Source of the DNA: Schmidtea polychroa
Taxonomy: Eukaryota
Direction: 5' to 3'
Assembly: GCA_044892525.1 (NCBI GenBank)
Contig: CM097885.1
Location: 150,660,001-150,724,000 of the forward strand
DNA length: 64,000 bases
A program made the position numbers and the translations under genes. Below are positions 16,838-53,363 of this stretch, in pieces. Positions within the stretch are counted from its first letter, which is position 1, and each line of letters begins with the position of its first letter. The notes under the pieces were generated by a model that was not told the origin of the DNA, did not search any database, and worked only from the letters and a program-made list of their open reading frames with translations.

Positions 16838-16892
16838 ACTGCTATACGAAAATTTTTATTTACAATTATTTACATTGATCATTCATCTTTAA

Positions 16893-17781: not shown

Positions 17782-18819
17782 TTATACAAAGGTCTCTTCC
17801 TGGCCTACATATCCCTCATCGCTTTCTACTGACGTTTGTAATTGGAGTGCGATGGGATCAAATGGGATGTAGTACCGGGGAATCTGCGCTCTAAGTTCTT
17901 GCACTTCGTCTCTTAGTGCTCTTGACACGTTAAGTTCCTCGTCCAACAGGTATGTTAGATACCTGGTTTCATCGTCTCTTACCTCTATCTGTTTTTCTAG
18001 CTCTTCCGCTTTTTCGCCGTTTTCCCATTTCTTGATCTCTATCTCCAGATTTTTAAGATTTTCGTTATACATTTTCCTTTCGTTTTCTAACTTTTTGTTT
18101 TTCCCCGCCAGTACCATATTTCTCTGCTCCAGAGCTCCTTGGTATCCGTTGACATCTCGTTCTAGTTCTGCGACCTTATTTACCAGTTCCACGAGTCGTC
18201 CTGACTGTTGAAGTATCAGTTCTTCCATTGCGGCATTCTCGTGCTCCCTTATGGAGATTTTCATGGCTAGATGTCTTTCAAATTCCATGGCTTTGGTCTG
18301 CCATGTTTGGCTTCGGACCGCAATCTTTCTGAGCCGTTTCAGTTCTTCTCTTATGACCAGATTTTCCTCCCATTTGCCTTGTTCGCTTTCGTATTCTAAT
18401 CTCATAGGCAATTCTTTCATTTCTTTTTTCATCTCTTTGTTCTGCCGCTTCCAGTTTCGGGCTTCTGCCAATAGGTGATTCATTTTCCTTCCTTCCTTTT
18501 GTTTTTCTGCTTCTCGTTTTGTGTTTTCGTCCGTCAATCGTTTCCGTGCTTCCTGCACTAATTGTTTTAAATAGTGGCTGTGTGCTTCTTGGCGAGTGTT
18601 TTCCAATGATGCCCACTTAGAGGCTCTTTTGCATGCTTCTGCTTCGGCTCTTAAATTGTTTATTAACCACTGATATTTGTTATTCTCGTATTCCCTGGCC
18701 TCTTCGAGATGGTTGTGGGTCTGGTTCGTCAATTGTAACATTACTTTGACCCATTTTCCCTTATGGATTTTATTGACTTTGGTTTCGTGGTTTGGGGCTT
18801 CAGTTCCTTCTTGTGTCAT
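17782..18819 (-). CDS. Accessory long coiled-coil protein (345 aa)
   Basis: ATG-started, continuous charged heptad repeats, no recognisable catalytic motif. Confidence 0.8.
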   Translation of the reverse strand: MTQEGTEAPNHETKVNKIHKGKWVKVMLQLTNQTHNHLEEAREYENNKYQWLINNLRAEAEACKRASKWASLENTRQEAHSHYLKQLVQEARKRLTDENTKREAEKQKEGRKMNHLLAEARNWKRQNKEMKKEMKELPMRLEYESEQGKWEENLVIREELKRLRKIAVRSQTWQTKAMEFERHLAMKISIREHENAAMEELILQQSGRLVELVNKVAELERDVNGYQGALEQRNMVLAGKNKKLENERKMYNENLKNLEIEIKKWENGEKAEELEKQIEVRDDETRYLTYLLDEELNVSRALRDEVQELRAQIPRYYIPFDPIALQLQTSVESDEGYVGQEETFV

Positions 18820-19038: not shown

Positions 19039-20427
19039 CTACTCAGTCCTACTCTTCCCATCACGTCTCACCGCTATTTTTATGTATATAGTGTCGTTTC
19101 TCGTCATGTCTTCTACTTTCCGCTGTAGGACGAAATTTGGTGCTCCAGTTGCTGGTCCTTCTTCTTCCAAGGGCCTTTGGTAACATACGAGGTTTCCCGC
19201 TGTATGGAAACTCTGTTCGTGTATACTTTGATAGTTCATCATTGCAAGGTCTATTTTTGCTTTGAATGGCCATTCTATTAACTCGTCGTATGGCCCTTTG
19301 CACATCAAGAAGAATACTGAGAAATGCGTTCCGTATGCACTTCCATCCCCATTGGGGTATGCTTTCATTTTCATTTTATACCCGTTTTTCCCTGAGTAGA
19401 ATGCTGGACTTAGTAATGTTGTATCCTTTCCATTTCTCGCTCTCTGCATCTTCTCTTTTATTCCCGTTATTTTCCATATGTACGGAGCCGTTGGTATTAA
19501 TTCGTTGAGGTTTAATTCGCTTACTTTTTGATGTAGTTCTTTCACCATAATATTGCTAGTTTCTACTAGATCTGTCTGTATCTTTGTACTTGTTCTCGCC
19601 TCTTCAAATGCTTCCTTTTCTTCCAATAGTTCTTTTACCAACGCTTTTAGCGAGACTATTTCTCTTTCTAAGTTTTCGGTTTTCCTTTCGTTTTCCTGTA
19701 ATACCGTTGACCATATTTCCGCGTGTGTTGATACGTTTTCTGCTAGATGTTGGGGTAATTCTCCTCGGTGTAATTGTTTCGGACATCCCCATTTTCCTAG
19801 CACACACGTTATCTTTTTTCTTTCACACTCTTTTAGATGTTGAGCGAGTTTTATTACTCCGGGTTTATCGCATTTGTTGGGGCATTCTCCTCTGAATTCT
19901 GCGCACACTTTCTCCTCTTGTATGTTGTGATGTTGACTGATTAGTTTCTTCCAGGTGTCGTTTTCTCCGCAATACTCGCATTTCTCTATTCTTTCTTCGC
20001 ATCGACTTTGATGTTCTGCTTCTTCATTGACTTTAATCTCTTCTTGGCAACGTTTGCATTGACTGATTTTATACTCACATTGCTCCGTATGTTGCCTCAC
20101 TTCCCATATCACTCCTCGCCAATTACATGGGGTGTTTTTACATCCTAGGTTTGCATTCAACATATCTTTTACAGCTGCTTTATCTTCGTTTGTATCTCCC
20201 AAACTTGTTATCATTGTTTCTTTGCATACTGGGCACCATTGTGGTCCCTTCTTTATTATCTCCTCTACACATTCTCTGCACATTCTGCATCCACATCTGG
20301 TTTGGTGAGGTTCTCTTAATAAGCTCTTGCATATTCCACACGTTACATGGTTGTGTATTCGAATTGTGGTGGACTTTCTAATTTGTTCAACAATTTCTCT
20401 GAATTCTTCTCGTTGTCGCTTATCCAT
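19039..20427 (-). CDS. traf: TRAF-family protein (RING, TRAF zinc fingers, coiled coil, MATH/TRAF-C), intronless, inside the retroelement
   Basis: RING CGICKSLLREPHQTRCGCRMCRECV...CPVC. Repeated CxxC...H...C zinc fingers. MATH domain YIWKITG...SPAFYSGKNGYKMKMKAYPNGDGSAYGTHFSVFFLMCKGPYDELIEWPF. Confidence 0.92.
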   Translation of the reverse strand: MDKRQREEFREIVEQIRKSTTIRIHNHVTCGICKSLLREPHQTRCGCRMCRECVEEIIKKGPQWCPVCKETMITSLGDTNEDKAAVKDMLNANLGCKNTPCNWRGVIWEVRQHTEQCEYKISQCKRCQEEIKVNEEAEHQSRCEERIEKCEYCGENDTWKKLISQHHNIQEEKVCAEFRGECPNKCDKPGVIKLAQHLKECERKKITCVLGKWGCPKQLHRGELPQHLAENVSTHAEIWSTVLQENERKTENLEREIVSLKALVKELLEEKEAFEEARTSTKIQTDLVETSNIMVKELHQKVSELNLNELIPTAPYIWKITGIKEKMQRARNGKDTTLLSPAFYSGKNGYKMKMKAYPNGDGSAYGTHFSVFFLMCKGPYDELIEWPFKAKIDLAMMNYQSIHEQSFHTAGNLVCYQRPLEEEGPATGAPNFVLQRKVEDMTRNDTIYIKIAVRRDGKSRTE

Positions 20428-20516
20428 TTCTATAATTATATATATACATATATTCGTTACCGGTACAGTTTCGTATTTTTATTTACATTTATTTACATTG
20501 CTATTTTAGGTTATAT

Positions 20517-20876
20517 TTATTGGCTGGAAGAGTCGGCCTCTTGTCCGCCCTCTTCCCTGTTGGTTAACCATTCTGACCAGTCTTCTATCTCCTCTCGCTC
20601 CATCTCTTCCGCGATTCTTATTAACTCTTCTTCTTGCACCTGGCTGTATCGTGATATTCGGTCTATCTCTCGCTGCATTTGTTCTATTTTCATTCGTTGG
20701 TCTTCGATTATTCTTACATAATTGAAGCCTTTATTTAAACTTTCGACTAAGCTTCTTTGTACAGCGAGTCCTTGTTCCTGTAAATTCGAAATCACTTGAG
20801 TTAACATTGCACATTGTTGTTTCCACATCTCCTCGGTTGTTGTACTGTGGTTTACTTCCTCGCCTATTCGCTCCAT
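20517..20876 (-). CDS. Accessory coiled-coil protein (~119 aa from first ATG; frame open from TTG at 20900)
   Basis: MERIGEEV... with helical, charged content and an acidic C-terminus. Confidence 0.6.
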   Translation of the reverse strand: MERIGEEVNHSTTTEEMWKQQCAMLTQVISNLQEQGLAVQRSLVESLNKGFNYVRIIEDQRMKIEQMQREIDRISRYSQVQEEELIRIAEEMEREEIEDWSEWLTNREEGGQEADSSSQ

Positions 20877-21044
20877 TCTTAATTTATATATACTTTTCAA
20901 TCCTTATCTAATTTTATTTTTATATTAATTATCCCCATCATTATATACTATTGATACCGCGCTTATATAAAAATATAGAATACTGTTATATAAATAAATA
21001 ATTCCTACTTACTTTTTACAATCTATATACAGTCATAATCCTTT

Positions 21045-24000
21045 CTATATACGTGAGCTTGGAGGGCGCTGAGCATTCCAGGCCTCCACCCACTGTTCCT
21101 GCTTGATATTACTTGGTCGTTTTACACGATGTTGAAAATTTCTTATTCTGGCCATTTCTAGTTCTCCGTGATGCCGTCTATCTTTGATTATTTTTATTGT
21201 CCCCCCCGTTATGATTAAAAAGGCCCCTGTTATTATTATGCCGCTGATCCACATCATCTGTTTTATGCTTATAATTTCCGCTTTTTCCTTGCTCGTTATT
21301 GTTGATATTGTTTCTGTGCTTTTTAGATTACCGTCTTTGCCATTTCCTTTCATCATTCCTCGTATTCTTGCTATTTCCTCGTTCATACCTTCCTTTGCCA
21401 TTTTTTGTATTTTCTCCATCTCCTCCTCGGATACATAATTGTCTTGGTGTTTCTCACTGTTTTTCTTGCGTTTTCCTTGCTCATCTTTTTCATCATCGAT
21501 TTTTCTTTTCTTTCCTCTTTTCCCAGGGTATCGTCGACATTCTCTCGCTGTATCTTTTCTCCAGATGCATATTGTGTATTCTTTTGGAGGTTGTTGCTGT
21601 ATTACATATTGTAGACAGTCTTCACCCGGTCTTAATCTTGCGATGCAGACTTTGTGTTCTTTTCTTGGCTGGAGTTGCGTTATCACTACCTCACCTCCTT
21701 TTCCCAGGTGTACCTCCTTCCCTTTGACTTTCGTTATTCTCTTCCCTTCTCGATTTCGGTATGCTTCTTGTATTCTTACTTCCGTTATTGGTTCTGCATC
21801 TTCATTTTTTAACACTAGTCTCTGATAAGCTCTAGACATACATCTTCCTAATATACACCTTTCTTTTAAATCCCATTCTTCTTTTAGATCCCATTGCTGC
21901 TCTTGTACTTGTTTTTTCTTTTCTTGTTTTAGTTCTTCCTCTTTGTTGTCCTTATTTCCCGTTTCTTTGGCTTCTTTTATCGTTCTCATTCCTCCCTGGG
22001 CTGTTATCATTTCCACCATTGTTAGTACGAGTATCATTATCATCATATTTGTCTCCATTTCTTTGTTGGTAAAAAGTAGGCATACCCTCTGTTTTCCACT
22101 ATTCGTCTTTTCTTCTTGCTTCATTCGGTTTCTCGGGTTATTTTCCTCTTTTTCCCTACTCGCGTCGTTATTTTCTTGATTATTCTCCTCTAATTTCTCT
22201 TTCTCTTTATTCCCGTTTCGACCTTTTTCATTATTATCGTCGTCTTTATCGTCTTTATCGTCTTTATCTCCCCCGCTATCGTTTAAAATGTCGTCCTCGA
22301 CATTTATATCATTCAACAATCTGCGGTATGCCGTTAGCACTCTGTTTCTTGCTAATTTTGCTTCGAGTTCGAACTCCTTTCTGCCTGTTGCTACATGTCT
22401 TTTTCTATTCCATTCTTTCACTAATTCTCTTAATTGTATCCGACGATGTTTCCCGATTCGCTTTTGTTCGTTTAGATTCTGCGTGAATTTGAGATCTTCC
22501 CTGTTTAATACGATCATTATGATTTTCGGAGTTCCTCCTTTTGTTAGTGTATTTTTAACCATAGCATTTTCTCCGTTTTCGTAGAACTCATTTATGTTTA
22601 TTGCATATTTATTGCTTTGTGGTATTCTCCATGTTAGCAGCAACTTCATGGCTTCTAAGTTCATCCGTATCGTGTTCCATTGGAACTGTGACGTGTTTTT
22701 ACAGATATTTTCTACCTCAGTTCTTGTAGCATTTTTACAAATGAATCTAATCATTTCCAAGTTTGGTTGTATTGTTGCCCAATCCATGGTAGAATTTCCT
22801 TCGTTTGATATTTCGTCAAGTCTCGAACCTGATTGATGTAGTATATGTAATGTTTTCGGGTGTATATTTGTTATGGCTGCATACATCATTGCTGTTTCCC
22901 CTTGTTCATTTTTTGCATTAGATTCTTCTCCGAAGTCTCTAAGGATTCTTATGATGGTTATTGCTCTGTTTTCTTTTGCAGCTAAAATGGCTTGTTGTAA
23001 TGGTGTTCTTGAGTCTTTTGTTGGTAAGGTGAATGCTAGTGGTATAAATGTTTTTATTTTTCCTATGTCTAGATTTGTGGTCTGATCTCTTGCGTAGGTG
23101 TGTACTGTCTTGGTTATTTTTGCTAGTATCGCTTCATCGGATAGATCTTGCATTTCTTCAAAGAATACTTCTTTAGCCTTACGTACTACTATCTCTTGGT
23201 CGGAGTTTATTGTCTTTGGTTTACTTGTTGTTGCTATATCGGTTATTGGTTGCTCGACCTGTTCCTCAGACTTTCTTGTTTTTACTTTCTTCATTTTTAT
23301 CTTTTTCTTGTTCGAACTGTTAATGCGTTCCTCTGCCGTTAGAACTTGAATAATACTTAGGTAGTTTTCTCGAATGTTGTTCATAGTTTCCATCATATGT
23401 AAAACACTCACGGTGTCCCAAAATTTTACTTGTACTTTATCGGTAAATTGAGATATAGCTTTTTCGAAGTTGGTAATTCGTTTTCTGATTAGTTGTTCGT
23501 CTTTGTGATTTGAGAATTTTATGCCTCGTTGTAGTAGTTGATTTGGAATTTCGAATAGGTGATGTCCTCTCATTGCTTCTCTCATCAAGGTATTTTCTCC
23601 TTTGGTAAATGTTTCGTTTATATCCACCATATAATCGTTTTTTATCGGGTTCCTCCATGCAATTAGTATTCCAGTAATTGTTGTTAATTTCTCTTTGATT
23701 GCAGTAAATAGCCCGTCATACATGTTTCCTATCTCTCTATTATCCTCGTATGATATTAGATCTACTAAGATTATGAAGGCTTCCGTACTTTTCCCTTCGA
23801 TTGCATGATGTAATGCATTTTTCTGGTTGTGATCTTGTGTGGTTATCTTTGACCCAGTTTCGAGTAATGCGATGATAATATCTTTAGCTTTATCCCGATT
23901 GGCTGCTATCATTAGTGGAGTGTAACCTTGGTTGTTTTCTTGATCTGTCGAAATGTTACAATCGCGAAATGCTTCAATTGTTTCTAATATCTGTTCGTTA

Positions 24001-27000
24001 CTACCCACCTTTAAAAGCTTGTGCAGGGGTGTGTCTCCGTAGTGGTCTGTGATCGTGAATAATATAGGCCATTGACTTTTAACTACCCTGAGCAATGGGT
24101 GTGTTCTTTCTCGGTTTGCATAATTTTCGATCATTGTTAGCAGACCTCCCAATATCTCAAAATCTAATCTGTCTTCTGCCCATCCGGGCATTTTAACTTT
24201 TACTTCCTTTATGATTTTCTCGGCTTCTGATGGTTGTAACCCTAATCGATTACCTGTTGGTTCGTTTATTTGCTGTAACATGTTTATTCTATACGTTTGT
24301 GATCTTGTCGTTAGTGTACGTCCTTCTGGCTGACTGGTGGCGGTTTTCGGAATTGGCTTACATCGTGCAACATTTACATATATTGGCCTTGTAAAAGGGT
24401 TGTTCACTAATCGTACTCTTACATTAGTTTCTCCGACGAATAGAATCTCATACGGCCCTTTACCGTTTCGTTGTAATTTTTTGGTGGTTCCTGGAATTAA
24501 TTCTGGTGTTTCAATCATCACCCAATCGCCTGTTTGAAACGTATGCTGTTTGACGTTTTTCTTTCTATCATGTAACTCTTTGTAACTTTCTTGATAAAAT
24601 TTTATATTCAATCCTGCGGTTTCCCAGATTTCCTGCATTCTTTCCTTGAACTTGGTTACATAATCGTCTATTTCCATGTACTGTGATATCGGTGGCTGAT
24701 ATTCTAAATCCATTGGCATATTGCATTCTCTGCCGTACATCAACTTGAACGGACTCATCTTTGTGGACGCGTGAATCGACATTCTGTAAGCCATGAGGCA
24801 TAATTTTATATATTCATCCCAGTCTCGTTGATGACGATCGACATAATTTGATAACATTTGAATCAGTGTTCCATTGAATCTTTCTGTCATACCATTAGTT
24901 TGTGGATGGTACGGTGATGTTCTTAATTTTGCGATCTTGAAGTAGTTGGTGACTTCGCTCATTATTTCGCTCATGAAATTCGTTCCTTGATCCGTCAGTA
25001 TTTGTTTCGGCGTTCCATATCGACAACATATTTCCTCTACTAATATTTTTGCGATTGTTCTTGCTTTCTGATCTGCCATTGCGAATGCTTCGGGAAATTT
25101 TGTCAAATAATCTGTGATTACCAATATATATATATTTCCTCTATCTGATTCTGGTAGTGGACCGACTACGTCCATTGATATCATCGTCATTGGTTCTGCT
25201 GGCACTGGCATTGGCTTTAATGGTGCCTTCCATTTTGTTCCCGTGTTTTTTCTGGTTGCGCAAGTTATGCAATTTTTCACCCATTCCGTTACATCCTCGG
25301 TCAATGTAGGCCAAAAATATTTTTGTTTCATTCGTGCCAACGTCTTTTTAGATGACATATGTCCTCCGAGTCTTCCGTCATGGTATTGTGTTAGTAGATC
25401 TTTACGTCTATTCTCGGGAATGCACATCAGTCTTTTCTCGCCATCCATTATCAATAACCAATCTTTCTCGATAATATATCGATGTCGATGTTTATCCATA
25501 TGCTCCTTCAATTTTTGATCTTTCTCATATACCTCTGCTTTCCCTGTTTTCACATATTCAATGATTTGCTTCAACTCTGTATCCTCTTGTTGGTCTTTCC
25601 GTAATTGGCAAAAATCTAAATCTTCTGCTACCATCAGACATATTCGTTGCATTTCGTGATCTACTAAATCTGGAAAGATAAATCTGGACATACAATCCGC
25701 ATTGGCATTCGCTCTTCCCGCTTTGAATTTTATGAACGGTGAATATTCTTGTAACTGCATTGCCCATCGCATCAATCTACTTGAAGCTTCTTTGTGTTGA
25801 CCAAGCCATACTAATGGTTGATGATCCGTGGTGATACATATTTCGTGTCCCCATAACAAATATCGAAAGTGTTTAATTGCTTGTATGATTGCTAACGCTT
25901 CTCTCTCGGTTACGGAATAGTTTTTCTCGTGTTTTTTAAACGTTCTACTGTAGTATCCAATCACTCTTTCTTTTCCTTCTTCGTCGAGTTGTCCCAATAT
26001 TGCTCCGGCTGCATATCCACTTGCATCTGTTGCTAATAGGAACGGTTTCTTGAAATCAGGATGTACTAGTATTGGGGCTTCAATTAATTTATCTCGCAAT
26101 GTCTCAAACGCTTTTTGTTGTTCTGCACCCCAAATAAATGGAATATCCTTTTTCACTAATTCCTGTATTGGTTTCGCAATACCTGCATAGTTTTTGATGA
26201 ATTTTCGATAATATCCGCATAATCCGAGAAATTCTTGAACTTGGGTGACAGTTTTTGGTGCTGGACATGTTTTTATTTTTTCTAGGTTTCTTGGATCTGG
26301 TTCTTTGCCTTTTGCTGACACTATGTGTCCTAAGAACGTAACTTTTTCTTTTGCCCAATCACATTTGGATGGTTTAAGTTTCAGTTTCCATTGTCGTAAT
26401 CTAACGAACACATTTCTGATATCTTCCAAATGTTGTTCGAATGTTGCTGAATATATTAATAAATCATCAATATATACCATACACTGCTTGATCCCGTGTG
26501 TGACAAAATTCATACATCTCTGGAATGATGCTGGGGCATTGGTCAGTCCGAACGGCATTTTCCTGAATTGGTATAGATCTCGGCCCAATGTGAATGCTGT
26601 TTTCTCTTTGTCTTCCTCCTTGACTTTGATCTGCCAATATCCGCTTTTCAGATCTAAAGATGTAAAATATGCGGCCCCCTGTAACATAAGTAACATCTCA
26701 TTGATGTCTGGTAACGGGTATGTGTCTCTTTTTGTTACTGCATTTAATTTCCGATAATCGATACAGAATCTCTGAGTACCGTCTTTTTTCTTCACCATGA
26801 CTACTGGAAATTGCCATGGCGAACAACTTGGTTCGATCACTTGTGCATCTAGCATTTTTTGTACTTCGGCTTCGGCTATCTCTTTTTGCTTCTCCGCTAG
26901 TTTGTATGGGCGTAGTGCGATTGGAGTTTCGTCTATTAATGGTATTGCGTGTAATGTAACATCGCATGCTCCCAAATCTAAATCCGAAATTGCGAATATA

Positions 27001-30000: not shown

Positions 30001-33000
30001 CTACATTCCTCTATATCTCTCAGGGAGTATCTTTCTCCTATTATCGAATTGTCACAGTCGTAAATAGTAAATCCCGCGGCTCCACTGGTGCAGAGCATCC
30101 ATATCATCATGGTCATCATTAGTGAATTAATCGACGCTTTTCTGCTGGCTGGGTCTTTCAATGGCAATTCCCATTCTAGCTCATGTAGTAACTTCTTCAA
30201 CCGAATTTGCATTGATCTCTCTTGCTCGTTTTTTCGTGGCGCTTGTATGAGTCTTTTCCACCCACCGGCGCGGATGATATGTGGTTCGATTGTATTTTCA
30301 ATGATTGTGACGGTCATTTCTACATGATTTGCGAATTGTTTGTTAGGTATTTTCCTTGCTGCTAATCCCATCAAATTGTACATTAGATACGTTAATACTA
30401 CTAAATGATGTTCGTCGTCGTTTGCGTTTAAAGTTAATTGTTCAATTACTCTTCTTGTCTCTTCCCAATCGGTTTTAGTGGTTTTTGTCTTCTCTTTGAT
30501 TAATTTCGGAATTATTCCGGATATTGTATTCCATAGTTGTCTGGCGTCTACGCTTGCTACTTTTCGTTGCCATAACCGTCGCAATTGTGGGTTCGTTATT
30601 ATTAGCATATCTTTTACTAGCTCTCGTATCCATTTTTCGCCTCTTTCGATAGTTGGCTGGGCCTCTTTTAGATCCCACACTATTTTATCCAGTTTCTCTA
30701 ATCTGACTTGTCCTTGTTCTTGTTTCAGTTGTTCTCTAGTTTTAAATTCCGGTTTTTCTCCTTGCTTCTTGGGTCTCCCTTTTGCCCGTTTTTCCATCAT
30801 TGTTCCGGCTTCCCTTGTATTTTCATAATTCGGGTTTCTCTCGTTATCCGTTCTTGGCAATGAGCTATCGTTATTTCTTAGCCATTCGTTCCATTCGTCT
30901 ATTATTTTGTCCGTTTGACCTTCTGGTGTTGCTTTCGTTGGTCCTTTCTGTCGTTGGAATTGTTCGTCGGTTTCGGTTTCTGTTGTATTATCGATAATCT
31001 CCTCGATACTCAGCTTATTTGGCTGCTGATAGCTAGTTGACGGTTGGCTTGTTGTCCATATTTCGGCTCCTGTCGGCCATCTTACCAGAATTGGTGATCT
31101 TTCTCCAGCTCCTTCATCGCTGTCTTCCAATATAATTTCCTCGATTTCCTCGGTTTCATTCGTTTTACTTGCCACTTTGTTAGGGCTTGGTGTACTCAAG
31201 CTACCTTTCGTAGGTTTACTGGATTTGTTCTTCCTTTTAATCGGTTTTCCCAATGTTTCTGCCATTGTCAATACATTGATCTCCCCCAATCTCATGGGTG
31301 TTATTCCGACATCTGCATTATCATCCAACGATTTTCCGAATAGTTGTAGGTGAAATGGAGTTTCGTATGCTAATTTCTTTTTTAACTCTCTGATCTTTGT
31401 TGTTGGATGTACTTCTGTATCCTCAATGCTTTTGTCGGGATACTTGACTCGGATACGATACCTTTCCTGGGTATCTTGTGCCCATTCTTGGTTTCTCCAT
31501 TTCCTAATAATTTGTTCTAGCTGTTCTGGGTACCATTCGTTATATTGTCTGTATTCCTCAATCGCTTTCGCCATTTCTCTTAGATTGTGGATATTCTCTG
31601 ATGTCTTTAGGATGATGTTAGCCAATGCTATTACTTGACGTTTTTGATTTTTTGTTCCCGTTGCTAAGATATCACCTAATTGTTTATATCTTTCCTTCTC
31701 TTCTCGTTCTCGAGCTTCCATCGCTTCTTCGCTATCCATATCGGCATATTCGCGTTCTTTCTTTCTCATCGCATGAATATGTCTGGTTTCCGTTTCACTT
31801 TCTGATGTAACATCCGTTTCGCTTCCGTCGTCCGATGTCGATTCTATTTCGTCCTCTTCGTATTTTGGAGGTTCATCTTCCTCTTCTTCTGATTCACTTT
31901 CTATCTCACTAATGTCTGTTTCCACGAAAATCCCTTTCCTGATTTTCCATTCTTTGTTTTCCGCATTCCACGTCCTTTCCCATGGGGTTCGTCTGCAGGA
32001 TCTCACACTTAGTTTCTTTATTTTTCCTTGAAGCTCTTTTTCTTTTAACCACTGTTGATGAATTTCAATTATCTCTACTGATTTTTGATATAGCGTTTTC
32101 ATCCTGTCTCGTATTTCTTTCTGGTATGTTATATCTCTTGTTCGGAATTCGTCCATGGGCAATATTCTGATGATTTGATGATTATCCCACATTCCCATTT
32201 CGCTTAGCGAGGTGTCGTCTTCGGCCCGTAATATTATTTTATCGTACATCATGACTACGTCATCTATCATCCCGTCGCTACTCTCGCTTCGTACTTTTTC
32301 CGTTATCTCTTGGTTTATCTTGGTTACTAAGTCATCTACCGTACTCTGATTACTCATCTTTATTCGTCGTTTCTCCTCGTTTGGTAACCATATGGTTATT
32401 TCTAATTTCTGCGGTTGCGTTTCTTTCAACCTGCCATATTTGTGGATCAAATTTATGGTTCTCCAATCGCTCATCCTGAGCAATTCTGTATCTCGTAATC
32501 GGCTCATTAGTTCATGCATGTCTGGAGTTCGTCTTGCTATGAGTAAATCCCAGTTATCTTCGACTTGTTCTTGAATTTGTTTGATTAATTTATCTAGATT
32601 TCGTCGCAAGGTGCATTGTTTTATTTGTTCCAGCTTCAGCTTGATGCTAAAATCGTACTCGGCCTTTGCGTCTTTAGCCCATTCGTGAATATTTGCTGGT
32701 TGTTTCTCTTTATACAATTTCAATATTTGAGTTTCTCCTGGCCAGATCAATGCATCTATTAGGTGCATGTCTGGTTTGATTTGTTCTCCTTGATGTTGAT
32801 ACAGATATTCTTTCTTTCTCGAGCTGCCCAAATGTTCTCTTATCCAATCGAAAAGGTCGTCTGTGACTGCATTTTTTATCCATATTCTCTCGAGTCCTTT
32901 ACTCGTTCCGATTTTTATTACATAGCGTGTTGTCTCCGCTTGTTTCATTTTTTCCATATACTTCTTTATTATCACTTTTTCCTCGTTTGGTATTAGGTCT

Positions 33001-35480
33001 TTTTCGTTTCTTTCTAGTTTCATTATCTTTTGTATGAAGCGTCGGTATGGTATGATGTCAATGAATTCCTGGTTTCTTACCACCACTGGAAGTATTTCCT
33101 TTACTTGTTTTATCGCTTCTTCTCTTTCTTTTCTCAATTTCATTTCGATATTCTCGTCTTCGCTTTCGCTTGTCACGTCGCTTTCTCTTTCATCTTCATC
33201 TGCTCCGATCTTTTCTCTTAGTTGGTCGATATTTTCATTTAACTGTAACATTTCTCCACCAAGGCTACTCACATAATCCTCATCGTCATCTGTTGACAAC
33301 ACCTTCTTTGTTGTCCTCATCATATTAATTCGTAAATTTCTCATTCTTGGTACTTTCTTTAACTTGTTGTTCTCGAGTATCGTTAGCTCCTCTGAGTCTA
33401 ATTCTCGTATCATATTATGCTTTAGATGATTAATCTGTTTTTCATTTTCGTTATTTTCTGCTTCTGCTTCTGTTTTTGTTTGCTCATTTTCTCTTTCGAT
33501 TTTATCTTTTATCTTTTTCCAAAATATTTTCTGAATTCTCTGATTTCCTTTTAGTGGTGTTGTTGAATTTTCCTTTTTTGCTGCTGTAATTGTTTCTTTC
33601 GGTTTCTCTGGTTCGCTCATAGGTACAACTCTTGGATTTTTACCGTAATTGTAACAATATTGCTCCTTTATCTCCTTTACCATCCTCATCATATTTATTC
33701 GTAGTGGTTGTTCTTGTCGCTGCTGAATTCGCTCTCTTTTTATCCTTTCTTCTTCAGCTTGTAGTCTTTGCCATTCTTGTGCATGTTGTTGCACTTCATA
33801 ATTGTTAAGATTCTCGGTGCTTCTCATCATGCGTATATTCTGGGTTGGTTGTGGTACTTGCTCTTGTCTCGGTCTCATCATTTGTTGCATCATCTGCTTC
33901 ATTTGTGAAATTTCTTGCATCACATTCATTTGCTTTCCCTCACTAGGATTACTTTGTCGTTGCGGATTTGGTGCATAGTTATTATTTCGCTGTGGTGGTC
34001 GTTGCTGTTGGCTCCTTTCTCGACAGTCTCTTGAGATATGACCTAGTTGCCCGCAGTTAAAACATCCTCTTGATTGGCATATATTTTCCGTGTGTCCTCG
34101 TCGTCCACACCTATTGCAATTTGCGTTTCGGTAACAATCTCTATCCCAATGTCCTGGTTTACCGCATGTTCGGCATTGTTTGTTATCGTTCATATTTCGT
34201 CGATTATTAAAGTTGTTCCCATTGTTCGAGTTGTTGCGTTCACTGTTATTCCCGTTTGATCGTCCTTGTGGTGGTTTGAAAATTTGATGTGCTCCTGGTA
34301 TAAACTGATTCATCTTGGGTTCATGATTATTGTTATCCCCATTTTCCGTTTTCACCGTGGCTGTTGCGATTCTTCCCTCCTCTTGCATGACGTTCATTTG
34401 TGCTGGGAGGTGTAGTTCGCATCTTGTGGCCCAATCTATGGCTTCTTCTAGTGTTTTACACATTTGACATCCCACCGAGGCCCTTACCTCTTCTCGGCGT
34501 AGTCCTTCTATGAAGTAACCAATTAAATTTTCCTCCGGCAAGTTTCCGTTCATGGCCTTCTTTGCCAATCTTCGCAATTCACTTGCGTATAACGTAATTG
34601 ACTCGTTTGCTCTTTGTTTTCTACTTGCCAGTTCACCTAACGCTTGATTTATTGGTTTGCTGGCTCCGAATGTTTTTCTCAAAAATGTTTTGATGTTTTC
34701 CCAATTGTCTAATTTCGTATTTCTTTCTTTTGCTTCCAGATACACTTCGAGTGCGCTATCGCACAAAAACAGAGGCATTCGTTTACTAATTGCTTCGGAT
34801 GTCCATCCACACACATCGATATAGACTTCAAAATTTGTTATGAACGTTGCCAACTTGTTCGCATTCCCGTTGAACGGTTCGCCTCTAAATTTTTCTTTAT
34901 ATTCGTCGGGTTTTGCTACATTCATCTTGATTGGTTCTTGAAATGCTATTATTTCTTTTAAATTTTCTAGTGATGTAGCTAAACTATGGACGGATAATTC
35001 TTCCGTTGACCCGGTTAGGTTGTTTGTTATATCGGATAGACTTTCTCTACTTCTAGATCGACTGGGCGTATGTCCGGCTGTGGGGTTTTCTTGATCGTAT
35101 ATCGGTGTTTTGTGGGGTCTTTTTGCTCCTTGTGATATTCCTCTCTGCTGCCTAAATGATCGTCCTCTTTTGAGTTGATCTAATTCGTCTCCTGAAAATA
35201 ATACGTCTCCTGGCTTACTTGAAGATCTAAGGTTGGGTTTATCCGTGATTTTCCTTTTACTCTTTTCTGTCTTTTCACGTGGATTTTCTACAGTTAGCGT
35301 CTGCTGAATTGGTCGAGTTCGGTTTTGATATTGTCTTCCTTTGTGCGGGTTCTGAATTGCTTTTCCTGGGTTGTTTGTATATTCTCTGGATTCCTCTTGA
35401 GCTGGTTCTGAATTGACTTGGTTGGATGGATGTCTACAATGAAAATATGATATCGTGTTGCCTTTGCTTACACGAATCAA
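21045..35480 (-). CDS. Single-ORF giant polyprotein: Gag, Ubl x3, Bcl-2-like, chuvirus-like glycoprotein, PR, RT, RH, INT, ankyrin, signal/TM module (4,811 codons)
   Basis: No internal stop over 14,436 bp. First in-frame ATG at 34925 (Met186). Motifs: three CX2CX4HX4C, DTG, YIDD, TDAS, HHCC and D-D-E, ankyrin TPLH repeats. Confidence 0.96.
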   Translation of the reverse strand: MIRVSKGNTISYFHCRHPSNQVNSEPAQEESREYTNNPGKAIQNPHKGRQYQNRTRPIQQTLTVENPREKTEKSKRKITDKPNLRSSSKPGDVLFSGDELDQLKRGRSFRQQRGISQGAKRPHKTPIYDQENPTAGHTPSRSRSRESLSDITNNLTGSTEELSVHSLATSLENLKEIIAFQEPIKMNVAKPDEYKEKFRGEPFNGNANKLATFITNFEVYIDVCGWTSEAISKRMPLFLCDSALEVYLEAKERNTKLDNWENIKTFLRKTFGASKPINQALGELASRKQRANESITLYASELRRLAKKAMNGNLPEENLIGYFIEGLRREEVRASVGCQMCKTLEEAIDWATRCELHLPAQMNVMQEEGRIATATVKTENGDNNNHEPKMNQFIPGAHQIFKPPQGRSNGNNSERNNSNNGNNFNNRRNMNDNKQCRTCGKPGHWDRDCYRNANCNRCGRRGHTENICQSRGCFNCGQLGHISRDCRERSQQQRPPQRNNNYAPNPQRQSNPSEGKQMNVMQEISQMKQMMQQMMRPRQEQVPQPTQNIRMMRSTENLNNYEVQQHAQEWQRLQAEEERIKRERIQQRQEQPLRINMMRMVKEIKEQYCYNYGKNPRVVPMSEPEKPKETITAAKKENSTTPLKGNQRIQKIFWKKIKDKIERENEQTKTEAEAENNENEKQINHLKHNMIRELDSEELTILENNKLKKVPRMRNLRINMMRTTKKVLSTDDDEDYVSSLGGEMLQLNENIDQLREKIGADEDERESDVTSESEDENIEMKLRKEREEAIKQVKEILPVVVRNQEFIDIIPYRRFIQKIMKLERNEKDLIPNEEKVIIKKYMEKMKQAETTRYVIKIGTSKGLERIWIKNAVTDDLFDWIREHLGSSRKKEYLYQHQGEQIKPDMHLIDALIWPGETQILKLYKEKQPANIHEWAKDAKAEYDFSIKLKLEQIKQCTLRRNLDKLIKQIQEQVEDNWDLLIARRTPDMHELMSRLRDTELLRMSDWRTINLIHKYGRLKETQPQKLEITIWLPNEEKRRIKMSNQSTVDDLVTKINQEITEKVRSESSDGMIDDVVMMYDKIILRAEDDTSLSEMGMWDNHQIIRILPMDEFRTRDITYQKEIRDRMKTLYQKSVEIIEIHQQWLKEKELQGKIKKLSVRSCRRTPWERTWNAENKEWKIRKGIFVETDISEIESESEEEEDEPPKYEEDEIESTSDDGSETDVTSESETETRHIHAMRKKEREYADMDSEEAMEAREREEKERYKQLGDILATGTKNQKRQVIALANIILKTSENIHNLREMAKAIEEYRQYNEWYPEQLEQIIRKWRNQEWAQDTQERYRIRVKYPDKSIEDTEVHPTTKIRELKKKLAYETPFHLQLFGKSLDDNADVGITPMRLGEINVLTMAETLGKPIKRKNKSSKPTKGSLSTPSPNKVASKTNETEEIEEIILEDSDEGAGERSPILVRWPTGAEIWTTSQPSTSYQQPNKLSIEEIIDNTTETETDEQFQRQKGPTKATPEGQTDKIIDEWNEWLRNNDSSLPRTDNERNPNYENTREAGTMMEKRAKGRPKKQGEKPEFKTREQLKQEQGQVRLEKLDKIVWDLKEAQPTIERGEKWIRELVKDMLIITNPQLRRLWQRKVASVDARQLWNTISGIIPKLIKEKTKTTKTDWEETRRVIEQLTLNANDDEHHLVVLTYLMYNLMGLAARKIPNKQFANHVEMTVTIIENTIEPHIIRAGGWKRLIQAPRKNEQERSMQIRLKKLLHELEWELPLKDPASRKASINSLMMTMMIWMLCTSGAAGFTIYDCDNSIIGERYSLRDIEECRQASPNKLDIVKKKVSYHVYQESDFIRTQARECVVSKKVLAYYCGQYSYSTLILPGLDKEIVPIQREDCKELFRTGAMRIRDGVTIHGQSGMIKTESIYVAGRVKSTDGSCNGGTYTIRGEVISGVVVIESYTVELKEYEAQFDANNYQMKTNPACRATENVCRTGISTIIYEANTQKCRLQLLKSALFNEVKGEIYENEDDDEENGNVRMRNGKPVPPSPKEKRLTTQKTPTALITDDPDIGMRFIREKETTKCDSIVYRTNYAGIYMSRQVIDRAVGKVATEDVKLYLYANNKMDFLFHRGQTTMQKVYYDLIQNDCSLNKEILKTKLAIAITHPDNTMPSLPLPDGHFGRMVGEVMYTYACTKTFARLPRKPTIPPGKCANELEISYKGRNRFVQPVTRIMNPIGFYPNTFNCSNAYGPLYEKPDGKWIMLPVKTEVQEPKKFGLIELATEQDFKPIDVSKAGMYSPEDLETARLNVLFPARRESILSNMVTITGGTNFQSGPNYELLLSPDHFQQATSNMMKAMWGRFLVFGQMMAGILGIILIIQIVRVILTQMLACFDIYKREKKVNWKLIVGFLPFLAKTMVLHGHSKDIHRIKRLIKILTKIKGTDEEVGRRFRKTMYDEATRTQLKKNKPKFLDRFRNRSNSSDSDDDDNGNDKYPYPSRNPNEKPIETAPYWEKEKTNTWIANGSYIPPDIVGQQTALTMTQNMYPQLPSQPGMNYMPTRRTKSVDQADDVRTIAVMSSPGGAAVTVMIQINGKETSAMIDTGANVSAIAINQIPSKCWKDIEQTTIHIIACSKETVDVVGRWWTTLRYQDNEIETYLAVIPKLSEPCIIGTDLMPELFKEVVIDLTTMCLKDKMGRICKMNAIIRCPEKIIVPAKSQMICQIKVDAGMEGEVIFEPSKSFEKRRELPLAREIITINEDGEIPINITNFEEEDKIIYENERLGRLTPMIDIELPKITNETTKADELWIIDSTLLTEKEKERLQQLLIEYKDIFAISDLDLGACDVTLHAIPLIDETPIALRPYKLAEKQKEIAEAEVQKMLDAQVIEPSCSPWQFPVVMVKKKDGTQRFCIDYRKLNAVTKRDTYPLPDINEMLLMLQGAAYFTSLDLKSGYWQIKVKEEDKEKTAFTLGRDLYQFRKMPFGLTNAPASFQRCMNFVTHGIKQCMVYIDDLLIYSATFEQHLEDIRNVFVRLRQWKLKLKPSKCDWAKEKVTFLGHIVSAKGKEPDPRNLEKIKTCPAPKTVTQVQEFLGLCGYYRKFIKNYAGIAKPIQELVKKDIPFIWGAEQQKAFETLRDKLIEAPILVHPDFKKPFLLATDASGYAAGAILGQLDEEGKERVIGYYSRTFKKHEKNYSVTEREALAIIQAIKHFRYLLWGHEICITTDHQPLVWLGQHKEASSRLMRWAMQLQEYSPFIKFKAGRANANADCMSRFIFPDLVDHEMQRICLMVAEDLDFCQLRKDQQEDTELKQIIEYVKTGKAEVYEKDQKLKEHMDKHRHRYIIEKDWLLIMDGEKRLMCIPENRRKDLLTQYHDGRLGGHMSSKKTLARMKQKYFWPTLTEDVTEWVKNCITCATRKNTGTKWKAPLKPMPVPAEPMTMISMDVVGPLPESDRGNIYILVITDYLTKFPEAFAMADQKARTIAKILVEEICCRYGTPKQILTDQGTNFMSEIMSEVTNYFKIAKLRTSPYHPQTNGMTERFNGTLIQMLSNYVDRHQRDWDEYIKLCLMAYRMSIHASTKMSPFKLMYGRECNMPMDLEYQPPISQYMEIDDYVTKFKERMQEIWETAGLNIKFYQESYKELHDRKKNVKQHTFQTGDWVMIETPELIPGTTKKLQRNGKGPYEILFVGETNVRVRLVNNPFTRPIYVNVARCKPIPKTATSQPEGRTLTTRSQTYRINMLQQINEPTGNRLGLQPSEAEKIIKEVKVKMPGWAEDRLDFEILGGLLTMIENYANRERTHPLLRVVKSQWPILFTITDHYGDTPLHKLLKVGSNEQILETIEAFRDCNISTDQENNQGYTPLMIAANRDKAKDIIIALLETGSKITTQDHNQKNALHHAIEGKSTEAFIILVDLISYEDNREIGNMYDGLFTAIKEKLTTITGILIAWRNPIKNDYMVDINETFTKGENTLMREAMRGHHLFEIPNQLLQRGIKFSNHKDEQLIRKRITNFEKAISQFTDKVQVKFWDTVSVLHMMETMNNIRENYLSIIQVLTAEERINSSNKKKIKMKKVKTRKSEEQVEQPITDIATTSKPKTINSDQEIVVRKAKEVFFEEMQDLSDEAILAKITKTVHTYARDQTTNLDIGKIKTFIPLAFTLPTKDSRTPLQQAILAAKENRAITIIRILRDFGEESNAKNEQGETAMMYAAITNIHPKTLHILHQSGSRLDEISNEGNSTMDWATIQPNLEMIRFICKNATRTEVENICKNTSQFQWNTIRMNLEAMKLLLTWRIPQSNKYAININEFYENGENAMVKNTLTKGGTPKIIMIVLNREDLKFTQNLNEQKRIGKHRRIQLRELVKEWNRKRHVATGRKEFELEAKLARNRVLTAYRRLLNDINVEDDILNDSGGDKDDKDDKDDDNNEKGRNGNKEKEKLEENNQENNDASREKEENNPRNRMKQEEKTNSGKQRVCLLFTNKEMETNMMIMILVLTMVEMITAQGGMRTIKEAKETGNKDNKEEELKQEKKKQVQEQQWDLKEEWDLKERCILGRCMSRAYQRLVLKNEDAEPITEVRIQEAYRNREGKRITKVKGKEVHLGKGGEVVITQLQPRKEHKVCIARLRPGEDCLQYVIQQQPPKEYTICIWRKDTARECRRYPGKRGKKRKIDDEKDEQGKRKKNSEKHQDNYVSEEEMEKIQKMAKEGMNEEIARIRGMMKGNGKDGNLKSTETISTITSKEKAEIISIKQMMWISGIIITGAFLIITGGTIKIIKDRRHHGELEMARIRNFQHRVKRPSNIKQEQWVEAWNAQRPPSSRI
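22730..24065 (-). other. Two ankyrin-repeat blocks (~23720-24065 and ~22730-23015) after integrase
   Basis: DHYGDTPLHKLL, NNQGYTPLMIAA, DHNQKNALHHAI; DSRTPLQQAI, NEQGETAMMYAA, NEGNSTMDWA. Confidence 0.88.
24400..25440 (-). other. Integrase (HHCC, DDE, GPY motif)
   Basis: HDGRLGGH...CITC, DVVGPLP, TDQGTNF, NGMTERFN, GKGPYEI. Confidence 0.96.
25690..26940 (-). other. pol: Reverse transcriptase and RNase H (Ty3/gypsy type)
   Basis: FCIDYRKLNAVTKRDTYPLP, LDLKSGYWQI, MPFGLTNAPASFQR, VYIDDLLI (YIDD at 26463-26474). RNase H LATDASGYAAGAIL, YSVTEREALAII, TDHQPL. Confidence 0.97.
27400..27770 (-). other. Aspartic protease domain
   Basis: AMIDTGANVSAI (DTG at 27684-27692) and the downstream CIIGTDLM flap-side motif. 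Confidence 0.93.
28230..30135 (-). other. Env-like chuvirus-type (class III) glycoprotein: internal signal peptide, Cys-rich ectodomain, TM
   Basis: Signal LMMTMMIWMLCTSGAAG then FTIYDC. Conserved pattern YCGQYSYS, GSCNGGTY, YANNKMDFL, GHFGRMVGEVMYTYAC, CANELEISYKGRNRFVQPVTRI, GMYSPEDL...FP. TM WGRFLVFGQMMAGILGIILIIQIVRVIL. Confidence 0.82.
30240..30720 (-). other. Divergent Bcl-2-like helical domain
   Basis: VIEQL...(hydrophobic helix)...IEPHIIRAGGWKRL matches Bcl-2 VVEEL...LHTWIQDNGGWDAF, spanning 64 vs 63 residues from the first V to GGW. The BH1 NWGR motif is absent. Confidence 0.6.
31261..32927 (-). other. Three ubiquitin-like (beta-grasp) domains (~32705-32927, ~32158-32408, ~31261-31463)
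   Basis: The third, RYRIRVKYPDKSIEDTEVHPTTKIRELKKKL...LQLFGKSLDD, aligns by eye to ubiquitin [30 protein letters not shown]...LIFAGKQLED. The second has STVDDL...YDKIIL...DDTSLSEMG. The first is weaker. Confidence 0.7.
34023..34925 (-). other. gag: Gag domain (capsid plus three CCHC zinc knuckles at 34134-34175, 34077-34118, 34023-34064)
   Basis: EPFNGNANKLATFITNFE...YASELRRLAKKA...YFIEGL capsid pattern. Knuckles CRTCGKPGHWDRDC, CNRCGRRGHTENIC, CFNCGQLGHISRDC. Confidence 0.93.
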
Positions 35481-36145
35481 TCATTCCTTTTTGCCACATT
35501 CAAGCACAGACACCGTTTTAGGGCCTCTGTTATACTTCTCTTCATTTCCCCTCATACGCTTCTTCGCGGAATATAATTTCCCATCAACCCATATTTTTCG
35601 TCGATTTTAAATTATCTATTTGGGGTGGTAACAATTATCTATATAGTCGTATAAATTATCTATAGCTAGCATTTATAATATCGATAGGTCGTTGTCAGTT
35701 ACTGCTTATTACCCCCCATATTTTCTTAATCCTTTTACGCGGTTCCGCTATTTTACTTAATCTTTCATCTCTGTTTCCCCTTATTTGGTTCTACTCTGTA
35801 ACCAAAACAAAATTCGTTTAACCGGTTTAAACCAAAAAAATTCTGTAGAACTTTGTCTACTTATCTGGGATCCCTTTTAATTAATTAATCACCTTCCTCT
35901 TTTACTCATCACTTATTCTTTATTTTCATTATCTCTTTAATTCATTTTCCTTTTCCGTTTCTCTTTCCCACTGAAAAAAAATTTTCATTATTACTTCCCA
36001 CGAGCTCGTTTAATTCTTTCTAAATTCAAATACCATATTTCAAACTCACTTTGCTTCTAGCTAGCTTTAATATTCCATCTCACTAGTAATTTAAATGTTA
36101 TCAACTTGTAGCTTGAATGCTATCTCACTATTACTTTAGGCCTTT

Positions 36146-36820
36146 ACGACTGGCTGGCACTTTTCAACAGCTCAATCTTCTTCTCCTGACCGGTTGGACT
36201 ATTCAACAACTCGATCTTACGACTGGCTGGCACTATTCAACAGCTCAATCTTCTTCATCTCCGAACTGGCTGGACTTTTCACAGCTCAGTTTTAATTTTC
36301 CCTGCCCGGCTGGACTTTTCAACAGCTCGGCCTTAATATCTCCGACTGGCTGGACTTTTCACAGCTCAGTTTTAATTTTTCCTGACCGGCTGGACTTTTC
36401 AACAGCTCGGCCTTAATATCTCCGACTGGCTGGACTTTTCACAGCTCAGTTTTAATTTTTCCTGACCGGCTGGACTTTTCAACAGCTCGGCCTTAATATC
36501 TCCGACTGGCTGGACTTTTCACAGCTCAGTTTTAATTTTTCCTGACCGGCTGGACTTTTCAACAGCTCGGCCTTAATATCTCCGACTGGCTGGACTTTTC
36601 ACAGCTCAGTTTTAATTTTTCCTGACCGGCTGGACTTTTCAACAGCTCGGCCTTAATATCTCCGACTGGCTGGACTTTTCACAGCTCAGTTTTAATTTTT
36701 CCTGACCGGCTGGACTTTTCAACAGCTCGGCCTTAATATCTCCGACTGGCTGGACTTTTCACAGCTCAGTTTTAATTTTTCCTGACCGGCTGGACTTTTC
36801 AACAGCTCGGCCTTAATATC
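36146..36820. repeat. Tandem array, 80-bp unit made of two diverged 40-mers, in the element's 5' leader
   Basis: TCCGACTGGCTGGACTTTTCACAGCTCAGTTTTAATTTTT + CCTGACCGGCTGGACTTTTCAACAGCTCGGCCTTAATATC, repeated exactly 6 times at 36341-36820. Progressively degenerate copies back to ~36146. Confidence 0.95.
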
Positions 36821-37405
36821 TCTAAACTCTGCATGCTTCCGTTCCTTTTTGTCTTTATTCTATACTGTCATCTTCCTATTTTTACTTTTATTTGTCGACT
36901 TAATCTGTACCGCTTTGGAAGGTTTCCCCTTTCCCCCCTTGCTTAAAACGCAAAACGATCGCATTGATCCATTTCTGCATTGGTATGGTGATCAGCCATA
37001 CCGCAGAAACTTTTCAATATTCGCGATGGTACCTCGCCTTACATCTCTTACTCGGGGTGATCGGTTATCCCCTCCCGAACGGTTTTTCAATTATCGTACC
37101 TCCCGAAGGTGGCTCGGTTTATTCCCCCTTTAATCTTATGTTGGGACTAGCTCCACTTTATGTACTCGATTTAAATTTTAAAATACCCTTTCTTCATGGT
37201 GAAAATTATGATACCACAGATCAAATTATAGCTTCGCAAAATGAAATAAACACACAAAAATGATTTATTGATTATTCAGTCCATGCTACATATGATATAT
37301 GATACCATTATTAAAATATTAATGAATCAAATCAAAAAAAAATTAAAATATTTTAGTTTAATTGTTCAACCATCCAATTTCTCTCACCGAGCGACGATCA
37401 CGTAC

Positions 37406-37885
37406 CTAACTGAAGTAGATTGTGTGCTTCTCTTTTATTACACATGTGCACATAGAACACCGGATTAAACTGGCGGCGCATTCGTCACAATGGCTAAGGT
37501 GCCCACAAGGTAGAATCAGAATTTTGACAGGTCGCATCTTGCAAATGTTACAAGTTCTCAAGGCCGCTGCTTTCTCTACTATTGATGTTCGTATCCGCTG
37601 AGACAGAGTTTTGACTCGTTCGCGTATCCTCACATATTCGATGTTCAGCGCTGGGTCGTCGAGACGTTGCTGAAACCATTGGTAATGAATCGACAAGTCG
37701 GTATCGGTATTTGTTGATCCTAATCTGTCGGTTAGAAAGTTTTGTTTGGATATCAGCGGTGCGTTGTGGCTTTGTTGTTCTAGCAGTTCTATTTGTTTCA
37801 GTTTTTCCCTTAATGTTTTTATTGAATCATTTTCTATTTCGACGAACCGGCTTAGCTGTTGTAGATGTTGTCTAGCGTCTGACAT
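37406..37885 (-). CDS. RING-finger protein, IAP/MDM2-type C-terminal RING, no BIR domain (159 aa)
   Basis: CNICKMRPVKILILPCGHLSHCDECAASLIRCSMC...KHTIYFS*. The RING ends at the extreme C-terminus with an aromatic tail, as in IAPs. Coiled-coil N-terminus. Confidence 0.85.
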   Translation of the reverse strand: MSDARQHLQQLSRFVEIENDSIKTLREKLKQIELLEQQSHNAPLISKQNFLTDRLGSTNTDTDLSIHYQWFQQRLDDPALNIEYVRIRERVKTLSQRIRTSIVEKAAALRTCNICKMRPVKILILPCGHLSHCDECAASLIRCSMCTCVIKEKHTIYFS

Positions 37886-38337: not shown

Positions 38338-38355
38338 ATCCCGGCTGAGCCCCCA
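38338..38355 (-). other. Primer-binding site, tRNA-Pro type
   Basis: Minus strand reads TGGGGGCTCAGCCGGGAT (18 nt), close to the known tRNA-Pro PBS TGGGGGCTCGTCCGGGAT. It lies 7 nt inside the 5' LTR end. Confidence 0.85.
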
Positions 38356-48285: not shown

Positions 48286-48461
48286 GGCTTGTGTGAGGTA
48301 GAGGCGAAAACAAGGACGTCTGTAGATGAAGTCTCTAAAAATTTATTTGAAATTATTATGTGATGACATATATTTTTAAACTTGGACTCATTTATTTATC
48401 AATCGAGAATGAATAATGAAATTGAACTAGCAATAAGAATAACAAAATTTCTATCTATCAC

Positions 48462-48781: not shown

Positions 48782-48807
48782 ATGATTGAATTTGCGCTTT
48801 TTGATTA

Positions 48808-53321: not shown

Positions 53322-53363
<42 letters not shown>

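Follow-up and report, generated by a model that had tools for sequence, protein, structure and literature searches.

A giant retroelement of the Burro kind in Schmidtea polychroa carries selectively constrained Bcl-2-like, ubiquitin-like, ankyrin, RING and TRAF modules and encodes no IAP

The stretch analysed here (the window) comprises 64,000 bp of contig CM097885.1 of the Schmidtea polychroa assembly GCA_044892525.1 (positions 150,660,001 to 150,724,000, forward strand). It contains a Ty3/gypsy long terminal repeat (LTR) element of 30,654 bp, which lies on the minus strand (42493 to 11840). A previous sequence-only reading had listed five types of module, i.e., an IAP-type RING gene, three ubiquitin-like domains (UBLs), a Bcl-2-like domain, ankyrin repeats and a full TRAF, and all of them were recovered within this one element. 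The element belongs to the Burro kind, but it is not Burro1 and it encodes no IAP. It is a BIR-less variant of a known element, with a likely function in cell survival. On balance, we think it probable that its cargo serves the survival of the producing cell and dampens stress signalling based on ubiquitin during the replication of this giant enveloped element. Unless stated otherwise, coordinates are those of the window and the features of the element lie on its minus strand.

Retention of the modules and selection acting on them

The search for copies, performed with the region of the dUTPase-position domain and the reverse transcriptase (RT), found at least 109 copies at an identity of at least 93%. 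Of the 109 listed copies, 41 have a frame that extends over 4,590 codons or more, and one of these 41 has a stop inside the match. The TRAF is kept in 102/109 listed copies (81 listed directly and 21 of the other 28, which were fetched and in which both halves were found), while two of the remaining copies carry the N-terminal half only and five carry none within 10 kb; it is free of stops in 84 of 92 listed copies. The RING open reading frame (ORF) occurs in at least 102 of the 109 copies (98 listed and 4 of 10 more that were checked; one copy ends at the contig end). Loss of these modules from most copies is thereby refuted.

The ratio of nonsynonymous to synonymous substitution (dN/dS) was calculated for the window and 20 copies, which were picked to cover a spread of divergence among those with RING and TRAF both on the plus strand. 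The core gave values of 0.032 for RT, 0.013 for RNase H (RH), 0.021 for integrase (IN) and 0.031 for the envelope (Env). The value for the Bcl-2 domain (0.030, 95% interval 0.014-0.053) was equal to those of RT and Env. For the other cargo, dN/dS amounted to 0.064, 0.044 and 0.080 in UBL1, UBL2 and UBL3, 0.061 and 0.081 in the two ankyrin blocks, 0.10-0.15 in the parts of the TRAF and 0.12-0.16 in the RING ORF. With the modules thus ranging between 0.03 and 0.16 and the bootstrap upper limits below 0.3 for every cargo module, neutral evolution is refuted as well. Moreover, in every module the variants shared between copies were more constrained than singletons. The values of 0.52 for the last ORF and 0.34 for the polyprotein tail were set aside, as they are distorted by frame differences. 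The control in a shifted frame gave dN/dS of 0.9-6.8. The purifying selection on the cargo indicates that it is translated and useful while the element replicates.

Selection among copies shows a benefit to the element and not to the host, and the proposal that host stem or germ cells profit from the cargo is left unsupported. Several copies are mosaics (L017/L037, L020/L040, L098, L099 and L101), e.g., a RING ORF at 82% identity combined with a TRAF at 98%, or an integrase at 97-98% with a TRAF at about 70%, which suggests, at the level of sequence, that accessory blocks recombine between subfamilies. In a sequencing run guessed to be RNA, reads covered the internal region in 30/30 bins and the single-copy flank in none, although a trace of DNA from so abundant a repeat would look alike; no splice-type joints were listed in that run.

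Organisation of the polyprotein and assignment to the Burro kind

The total length and the internal region of 22,392 bp agree with the size of Burro-type elements, which exceed 30 kb and have long LTRs around an internal region of at most 25 kb. A single open frame of 4,811 codons (21048..35480, first Met at 34925) has the order Gag-UBLx3-Bcl2-Env-PR-RT-RH-IN-ANKx2-membrane tail, where PR is the protease and ANK an ankyrin block. As in Burro-type elements, Gag, with a capsid region and three CCHC knuckles (34020..34775), is thus joined to PR-RT-RH-IN in one giant ORF. The envelope fusion glycoprotein (28302..30074; Pfam PF24664, Monjiviricetes_fusion, E=8e-72) has a C-terminal transmembrane helix and lies in frame between the BCL2-like domain and the protease, again as in Burro-type elements. 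It was missing from the list of the sequence-only reading, and a single-sequence PDB search with it returned nothing useful. Protease, dUTPase-position domain, RT, RNase H and integrase occupy 24681..27734, with dN/dS of 0.013-0.032 for the four enzymes and 0.089 for the dUTPase-position domain; the latter, located between PR and RT, had no Pfam match, and this region is 69% identical to its counterpart in a sister family described below.

The polyprotein ends with a predicted second membrane protein (21186..22046, dN/dS 0.12) composed of a signal-like helix, a beta-rich cysteine ectodomain and a transmembrane helix. The model of the ectodomain reached a predicted local distance difference test score (pLDDT) of 55 and has an all-beta core. 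Searches of a structure atlas with this ectodomain and with the Bcl-2 domain gave no usable match. The sister family ends its polyprotein with a like membrane protein (L062, 6859-7850; 21% identity over 77 aa, E=0.001), and the Burro section of a review (PMC6431247, section 7) is silent on such a protein.

Burro/GYPSM1 elements are giant gypsy-like LTR elements of planarians, for which PMC6431247 refers to Jurka 2007 and Grohme 2018. The part of that review devoted to them names MATH_TRAF, BIR, ankyrin, BCL2-like, Ubi/SUMO-like and dUTPase-like modules as well as an env in frame. It also proposes that they interfere with apoptosis and ubiquitination in the host, the "apoptosis tinkerer" idea. 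The element of the window resembles them in its length of >30 kb, a polyprotein of about 4,800 aa, three CCHC knuckles, PR-RT-RH-IN and the in-frame env, in its ubiquitin-like, BCL2-like, ankyrin and MATH/TRAF cargo, and in its TRAF/MATH and coiled-coil accessory genes. Unlike Burro1/GYPSM1, it has no BIR in any part and no MATH domain in the polyprotein (a gap relative to L061/L064 of the sister family); two ankyrin blocks and three UBLs were resolved in it. The Dugesia tigrina element in the same part of PMC6431247 also lacks the polyprotein MATH. In PMC13465017, Lee et al. (Dev Cell 2026) are cited for B-IAP, a Burro1 protein with BIR and RING for which a protective effect on stem cells is reported, and Burro1 transcripts are stated in PMC8532177 to rise after PIWI knockdown.

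The position of env between gag and pol is shared with the GAG-ENV-POL errantiviruses of Platyhelminthes, which have an env of the type of herpes simplex virus gB (PMC13524379). The Smed env rows listed there resemble the Env of the window by eye, two of these rows being about 15 kb, and in the main text of that paper the terms Burro, Bcl, ubiquitin and TRAF do not occur.

The idea of the sequence-only reading, with its own caution that earlier work on planarian giant elements might overlap, thus meets a precedent: both the cargo and the apoptosis idea are found in PMC6431247, and the BIR+RING protein of Burro1 in PMC13465017. A retroelement with an apoptosis and ubiquitin kit has already been in print in 2007-2019, and one of its genes was tested in 2026. 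The additions made here are modest, namely selection values module by module and a thriving BIR-less family beside a BIR-bearing one; a family without BIR may already appear in Grohme 2018 or Lee 2026.

The RING ORF and the sister family with BIR

The ORF of 159 aa (37409..37885) consists of a helical N-terminus and a C-terminal IAP-type RING (Pfam zf-C3HC4_3, E=3e-8). Its ten best PDB matches are all RINGs of cIAP1/2, XIAP and ML-IAP, and all eight zinc ligands are kept in 20 of 21 copies. The ORF thus shares with IAPs the C-terminal RING of their type. However, a motif search found no BIR domain in this ORF or in any of the six frames of the element, and a BIR domain query matched stretches L063 and L066 only, with the best E above 0.4 in the window and the other stretches compared. 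BIR is the domain by which IAPs bind caspases. The designation "IAP-type RING gene" therefore holds for the RING, and the gene is not an IAP because it has no BIR. Burro1 B-IAP and the ORF of the window both represent an IAP-type RING on a Burro element, the former joined to a BIR and the latter BIR-less.

The Pfam BIR search of the genome listed at least 150 matches among 309 candidates, mostly in frames of 392-393 codons. Two sister elements (L061-L066) show the gene order of the window's element, except that a MATH domain separates UBL2 from UBL3, the ankyrin repeats form a single block and a BIR-RING ORF of 392 aa stands between the TRAF and the coiled-coil ORF, where the window has a gap of 223 bp. 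By sequence, this sister family has the published layout of Burro1. Its identity to the window is 88% in RT-RNase H, 58% in Env, 34% in the Bcl-2 domain and 35% in the TRAF. A diverged subfamily (L067-L072) has the BIR-less layout found in the window. The RING ORF of the window aligns full-length with the upstream RING ORF of the sister family (27% over 151 aa), while it aligns with the BIR-RING protein over 61 aa only. As the sister family also has an upstream RING ORF, that of the window did not arise as a replacement of BIR-RING.

Bcl-2-like and ubiquitin-like domains

The Bcl-2-fold domain (30225..30653) was recognised by a profile search, in which Bcl-xL was matched at E=0.0018, and by its predicted structure. 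In the fold search the top 29 of 50 rows were Bcl-2 folds (best Z 12.1, root-mean-square deviation 3.3, 136/144 residues aligned), and all 32 rows listed by Foldseek with the domain model were Bcl-2 folds as well. The model behind these assignments and those of the UBLs has a mean pLDDT of 40.5 overall and about 50-75 over the Bcl-2 domain. Single-sequence PDB searches with the Bcl-2 and UBL regions gave nothing useful. The helical fold and the kept BH2-like motif are those of the Bcl-2 family; the BH1 signature NWGR, which marks pro-survival members, is replaced in 21/21 copies. The same fold is known from other selfish genetic elements, namely viral Bcl-2 proteins (A179L of African swine fever virus, Bcl-2 of Kaposi's sarcoma-associated herpesvirus, BHRF1, and poxvirus M11L, N1L and A52). 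Unlike these, the domain of the window is embedded in a retroelement polyprotein, its identity to them is 3-16% and its BH3 binding is putative. Directly before it, at about 30770-30795, lies an RGRP motif kept in all families compared, which we take to be AT-hook-like or nuclear-signal-like.

UBL1 (32706..32930) is the weakest of the three and had no ubiquitin-like match, UBL2 (32151..32417) matched PI3K_rbd at E=0.005 and UBL3 (31257..31469) matched ubiquitin at E=0.014, so that singly the UBLs remain below the Pfam cut-offs. A joint profile of the three UBLs from three families nevertheless matched ubiquitin-fold chains at E=1.8e-6, and in the low-confidence model each of them starts with strand-strand-helix. 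None of the three has a C-terminal Gly-Gly. A death-fold domain considered for the helical stretch between UBL1 and UBL2 received no support from Pfam or the fold search.

A smaller gypsy family (L079-L081 and L088, frames of about 3,050 codons) is built as Gag-UBL-Bcl2-Env-Pol, and its Bcl-2 domain scores close to the Pfam threshold, with a motif that is more like BH1. The Gag-UBL-Bcl2-Env-Pol core is therefore old, as this smaller relative keeps it (also P0004 and P0011). A profile search of representatives yielded 16 matches: six ankyrin-repeat proteins, which are likely artefacts, four Pfam Bcl-2 proteins, five with env or CCHC (one of them also with Bcl-2) and two unannotated ones. Separately, L082 (G000:C1:34772001-34780000) has a Pfam Bcl-2 match with a P-loop ATPase ORF a few kb away; this ORF recurs in L076-L077 next to integrase-like ORFs. 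We assume the element at these loci to be of Maverick/Polinton type, and, going by sequence, a second class of mobile element in the genome may carry a Bcl-2 gene.

TRAF, ankyrin blocks and the question of NF-kB

The accessory TRAF (19039..20427) is an intronless ORF of 462 aa with the complete architecture of the family, i.e., an all-cysteine RING, zinc fingers, a coiled coil and a C-terminal MATH domain. Its closest relatives among solved chains are TRAF3 and TRAF2. In the comparison of 21 copies its zinc ligands are intact, and in all 21 its RING carries Cys where His is usual. Homologue searches returned ten TRAFs at 23-29% identity and one Gag-UBL-Bcl2 relative, and identified no donor of the TRAF. 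An expansion of planarian TRAF genes is reported in PMC6109357; planarian TRAF gene counts can include retroelement copies.

The ankyrin repeats (Ank_2, E=2e-20) form two blocks after the integrase (23451..24248 and 22491..23003), whereas the sister family has one block only. The sequence-only reading had taken them as IkB-like and the element as a blocker of NF-kB, and this part was not supported. There was no IkB chain among the best 60 of 164 PDB matches of the ankyrin blocks, and no DSGxxS degron was found with them, although viral IkB mimics may lack the degron. In Schmidtea mediterranea, according to PMC13563047, there is no clear NF-kB homologue, knockdown of the best candidate was without effect, seven divergent Rel-homology domain (RHD) genes exist and TRAF induction depends on TBK1. 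A genome search for Rel homology returned 0 candidates (the T-box control gave 19); it was judged too insensitive, given the seven divergent RHD genes reported in that source, and was not used as evidence. Moreover, RNA interference (RNAi) of host planarian TRAFs is described in PMC7586133 to cause more cell death. In view of the missing clear NF-kB, the TBK1-dependent TRAF induction and the increased death after TRAF knockdown, TBK1/TAK1-JNK/p38 signalling is a more plausible target.

Possible role of the cargo and alternative explanations

If the cargo does protect the producing cell, the protease of the element would cleave at a motif that recurs in the polyprotein and release UBL1-UBL2, UBL3-Bcl-2 and the ankyrin blocks as separate pieces. 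The UBL3-Bcl-2 piece may be anchored by the signal sequence of the envelope, as read by eye, and the Bcl-2 domain would then act at membranes as the main survival arm. Spliced RNAs could yield the small ORFs, and the TRAF and the BIR-less RING might serve as E3 ligases or decoys acting on host TRAF-TBK1/TAK1-JNK/p38 rather than on NF-kB. The benefit would fall to the element, with any host benefit at most a by-product. The low dN/dS of the modules, the Bcl-2 fold, the kept zinc ligands, the retention of TRAF, the old core, the outcome of host TRAF RNAi, the report on Burro1 and, for splicing, the AG close to the start codons described below speak for such a role. Several observations weigh against it. 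The element is without the BIR by which IAPs bind caspases; because that is the domain of the sole Burro protein reported to protect cells, we only infer the anti-death role. With NWGR replaced throughout the 21 copies, the presence of a groove that binds BH3 is uncertain, and the sequence matches of the Bcl-2 domain and UBLs are weak, with the structure model at a mean pLDDT of 40.5. In the alignment with TRAF3 the serine triad, which has a role in receptor binding, is replaced, and the cleavage motif was picked by eye. Furthermore, constraint extends to the linkers of the polyprotein (dN/dS 0.08-0.22), and a role in signalling therefore does not follow from a low dN/dS by itself. Of the proposed strategy of blocking apoptosis and immune signalling, the selection and retention of the modules thus stand, while the BIR+RING protein of Burro1 is absent and the idea itself had been published.

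The captured host modules could instead serve the element's own cycle, i.e., polyprotein sorting, envelope topology, assembly, trafficking or turnover of its own proteins, and leave death and immune pathways untouched. This is possible though unlikely: the Bcl-2 domain and UBLs are constrained like the enzymes and keep their in-frame place between Gag and Env even in distant relatives, and functional signatures (BIR, NWGR, Gly-Gly and the IkB degron) are eroded or missing, but the TRAF, complete and with its zinc ligands intact, is retained as a gene of its own, viral Bcl-2 folds of little sequence likeness have been solved with bound BH3 peptides (as their structure titles state), and a structural role hardly explains why domains of one pathway were picked repeatedly. 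A complete kit that blocks both apoptosis and NF-kB and also benefits host stem or germ cells, a form of mutualism, seems improbable to us. The conservation of all modules and the report on the Burro1 BIR+RING protein, as cited in PMC13465017, fit it; however, the gene for that protein is absent from the family of the window while present in the sister family, the likeness to IkB is missing and S. mediterranea has no clear NF-kB (PMC13563047), and host benefit cannot be shown by selection among copies.

The 223-bp gap in place of the BIR-RING gene, together with the youth and abundance of both families (the 41 long-frame copies and at least 150 BIR matches mentioned above), would also suit a BIR-less family that free-rides on the BIR-RING protein of its more abundant sister in the same cells, or whose lone RING competes with that protein. 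We regard this as very improbable, since the upstream RING ORF also occurs in the sister family and hence replaced nothing; co-expression of the two families is hypothetical. A broader proposal is that the Burro families split the job of host-cell survival, one of them multiplying without a caspase-binding IAP by means of a Bcl-2 domain devoid of the BH1 signature, which is as conserved as RT, and of a captured TRAF that rewires TBK1/JNK, possibly with BIR-RING borrowed in trans; we hold this to be rather doubtful. If true, the pair of families would be a natural experiment on mutualist versus cheater among giant retroelements. In any case, the contrast between the families offers a way to tell whether the host benefit that has been reported is a common trait of Burro or depends on a single gene, and it directs attention to the Bcl-2 domain and TRAF as the other candidate arms.

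Terminal repeats, accessory ORFs and flanking sequence

The two LTRs (5' LTR 38363..42493, 3' LTR 11840..15970) are 4,131 bp each, have TG...CA ends and differ at one base, and TTAG target-site duplications are present on both flanks; based on these two features the insertion is very recent. Complementary to tRNA-Pro(TGG) of the genome, the primer-binding site of 18 nt (38338..38355) lies 7 nt inside the 5' LTR. Genes for this tRNA form a long tandem array with 475-bp spacing (G000:C1 from 130,901,009), and its pattern has 1,580 matches genome-wide. Each LTR contains an ORF of 254 aa (38901..39662, second copy 12378-13139; dN/dS 0.10) with a basic motif and without a family match. In 17 of 20 copies it remains an uninterrupted frame of 252-259 codons, though the LTR DNA of many of them is only about 68% like that of the window, and the sole mismatch between the LTRs falls inside it.

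The element is arranged in the order RING ORF of 159 aa, 80-bp array, frame of 4,811 codons, ORF of 119 aa, TRAF of 462 aa, two coiled-coil ORFs and a last ORF. The tandem array of 7.5 units of 80 bp (36221..36822, strand not assigned) lies in the leader ahead of gag. The helical ORF of 119 aa (20520..20876, dN/dS 0.13) has a homologue in the sister family, and the coiled-coil ORF of 345 aa (17785..18819, dN/dS 0.10) is homologous to an ORF of 533 aa there; the second coiled-coil ORF has 233 aa (16896..17594, dN/dS 0.21). The last accessory ORF (16204..16855), a predicted membrane protein, is split into two frames in the window, while 18 of 20 other copies have an uninterrupted frame of 208-224 codons in its slot. 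AG was found 0-3 nt upstream of all eight start codons checked, a count made without a control for chance.

The sequence left of the element contains, on the plus strand from 187 to about 7000, exons of a host T-box gene, with Pfam T-box matches at 658-759, 1917-2186 and 2561-2722. On the other side, the region 47600-60400 contains decayed gypsy-like and transposase-like fragments and a long inverted repeat pair (48462-50236).

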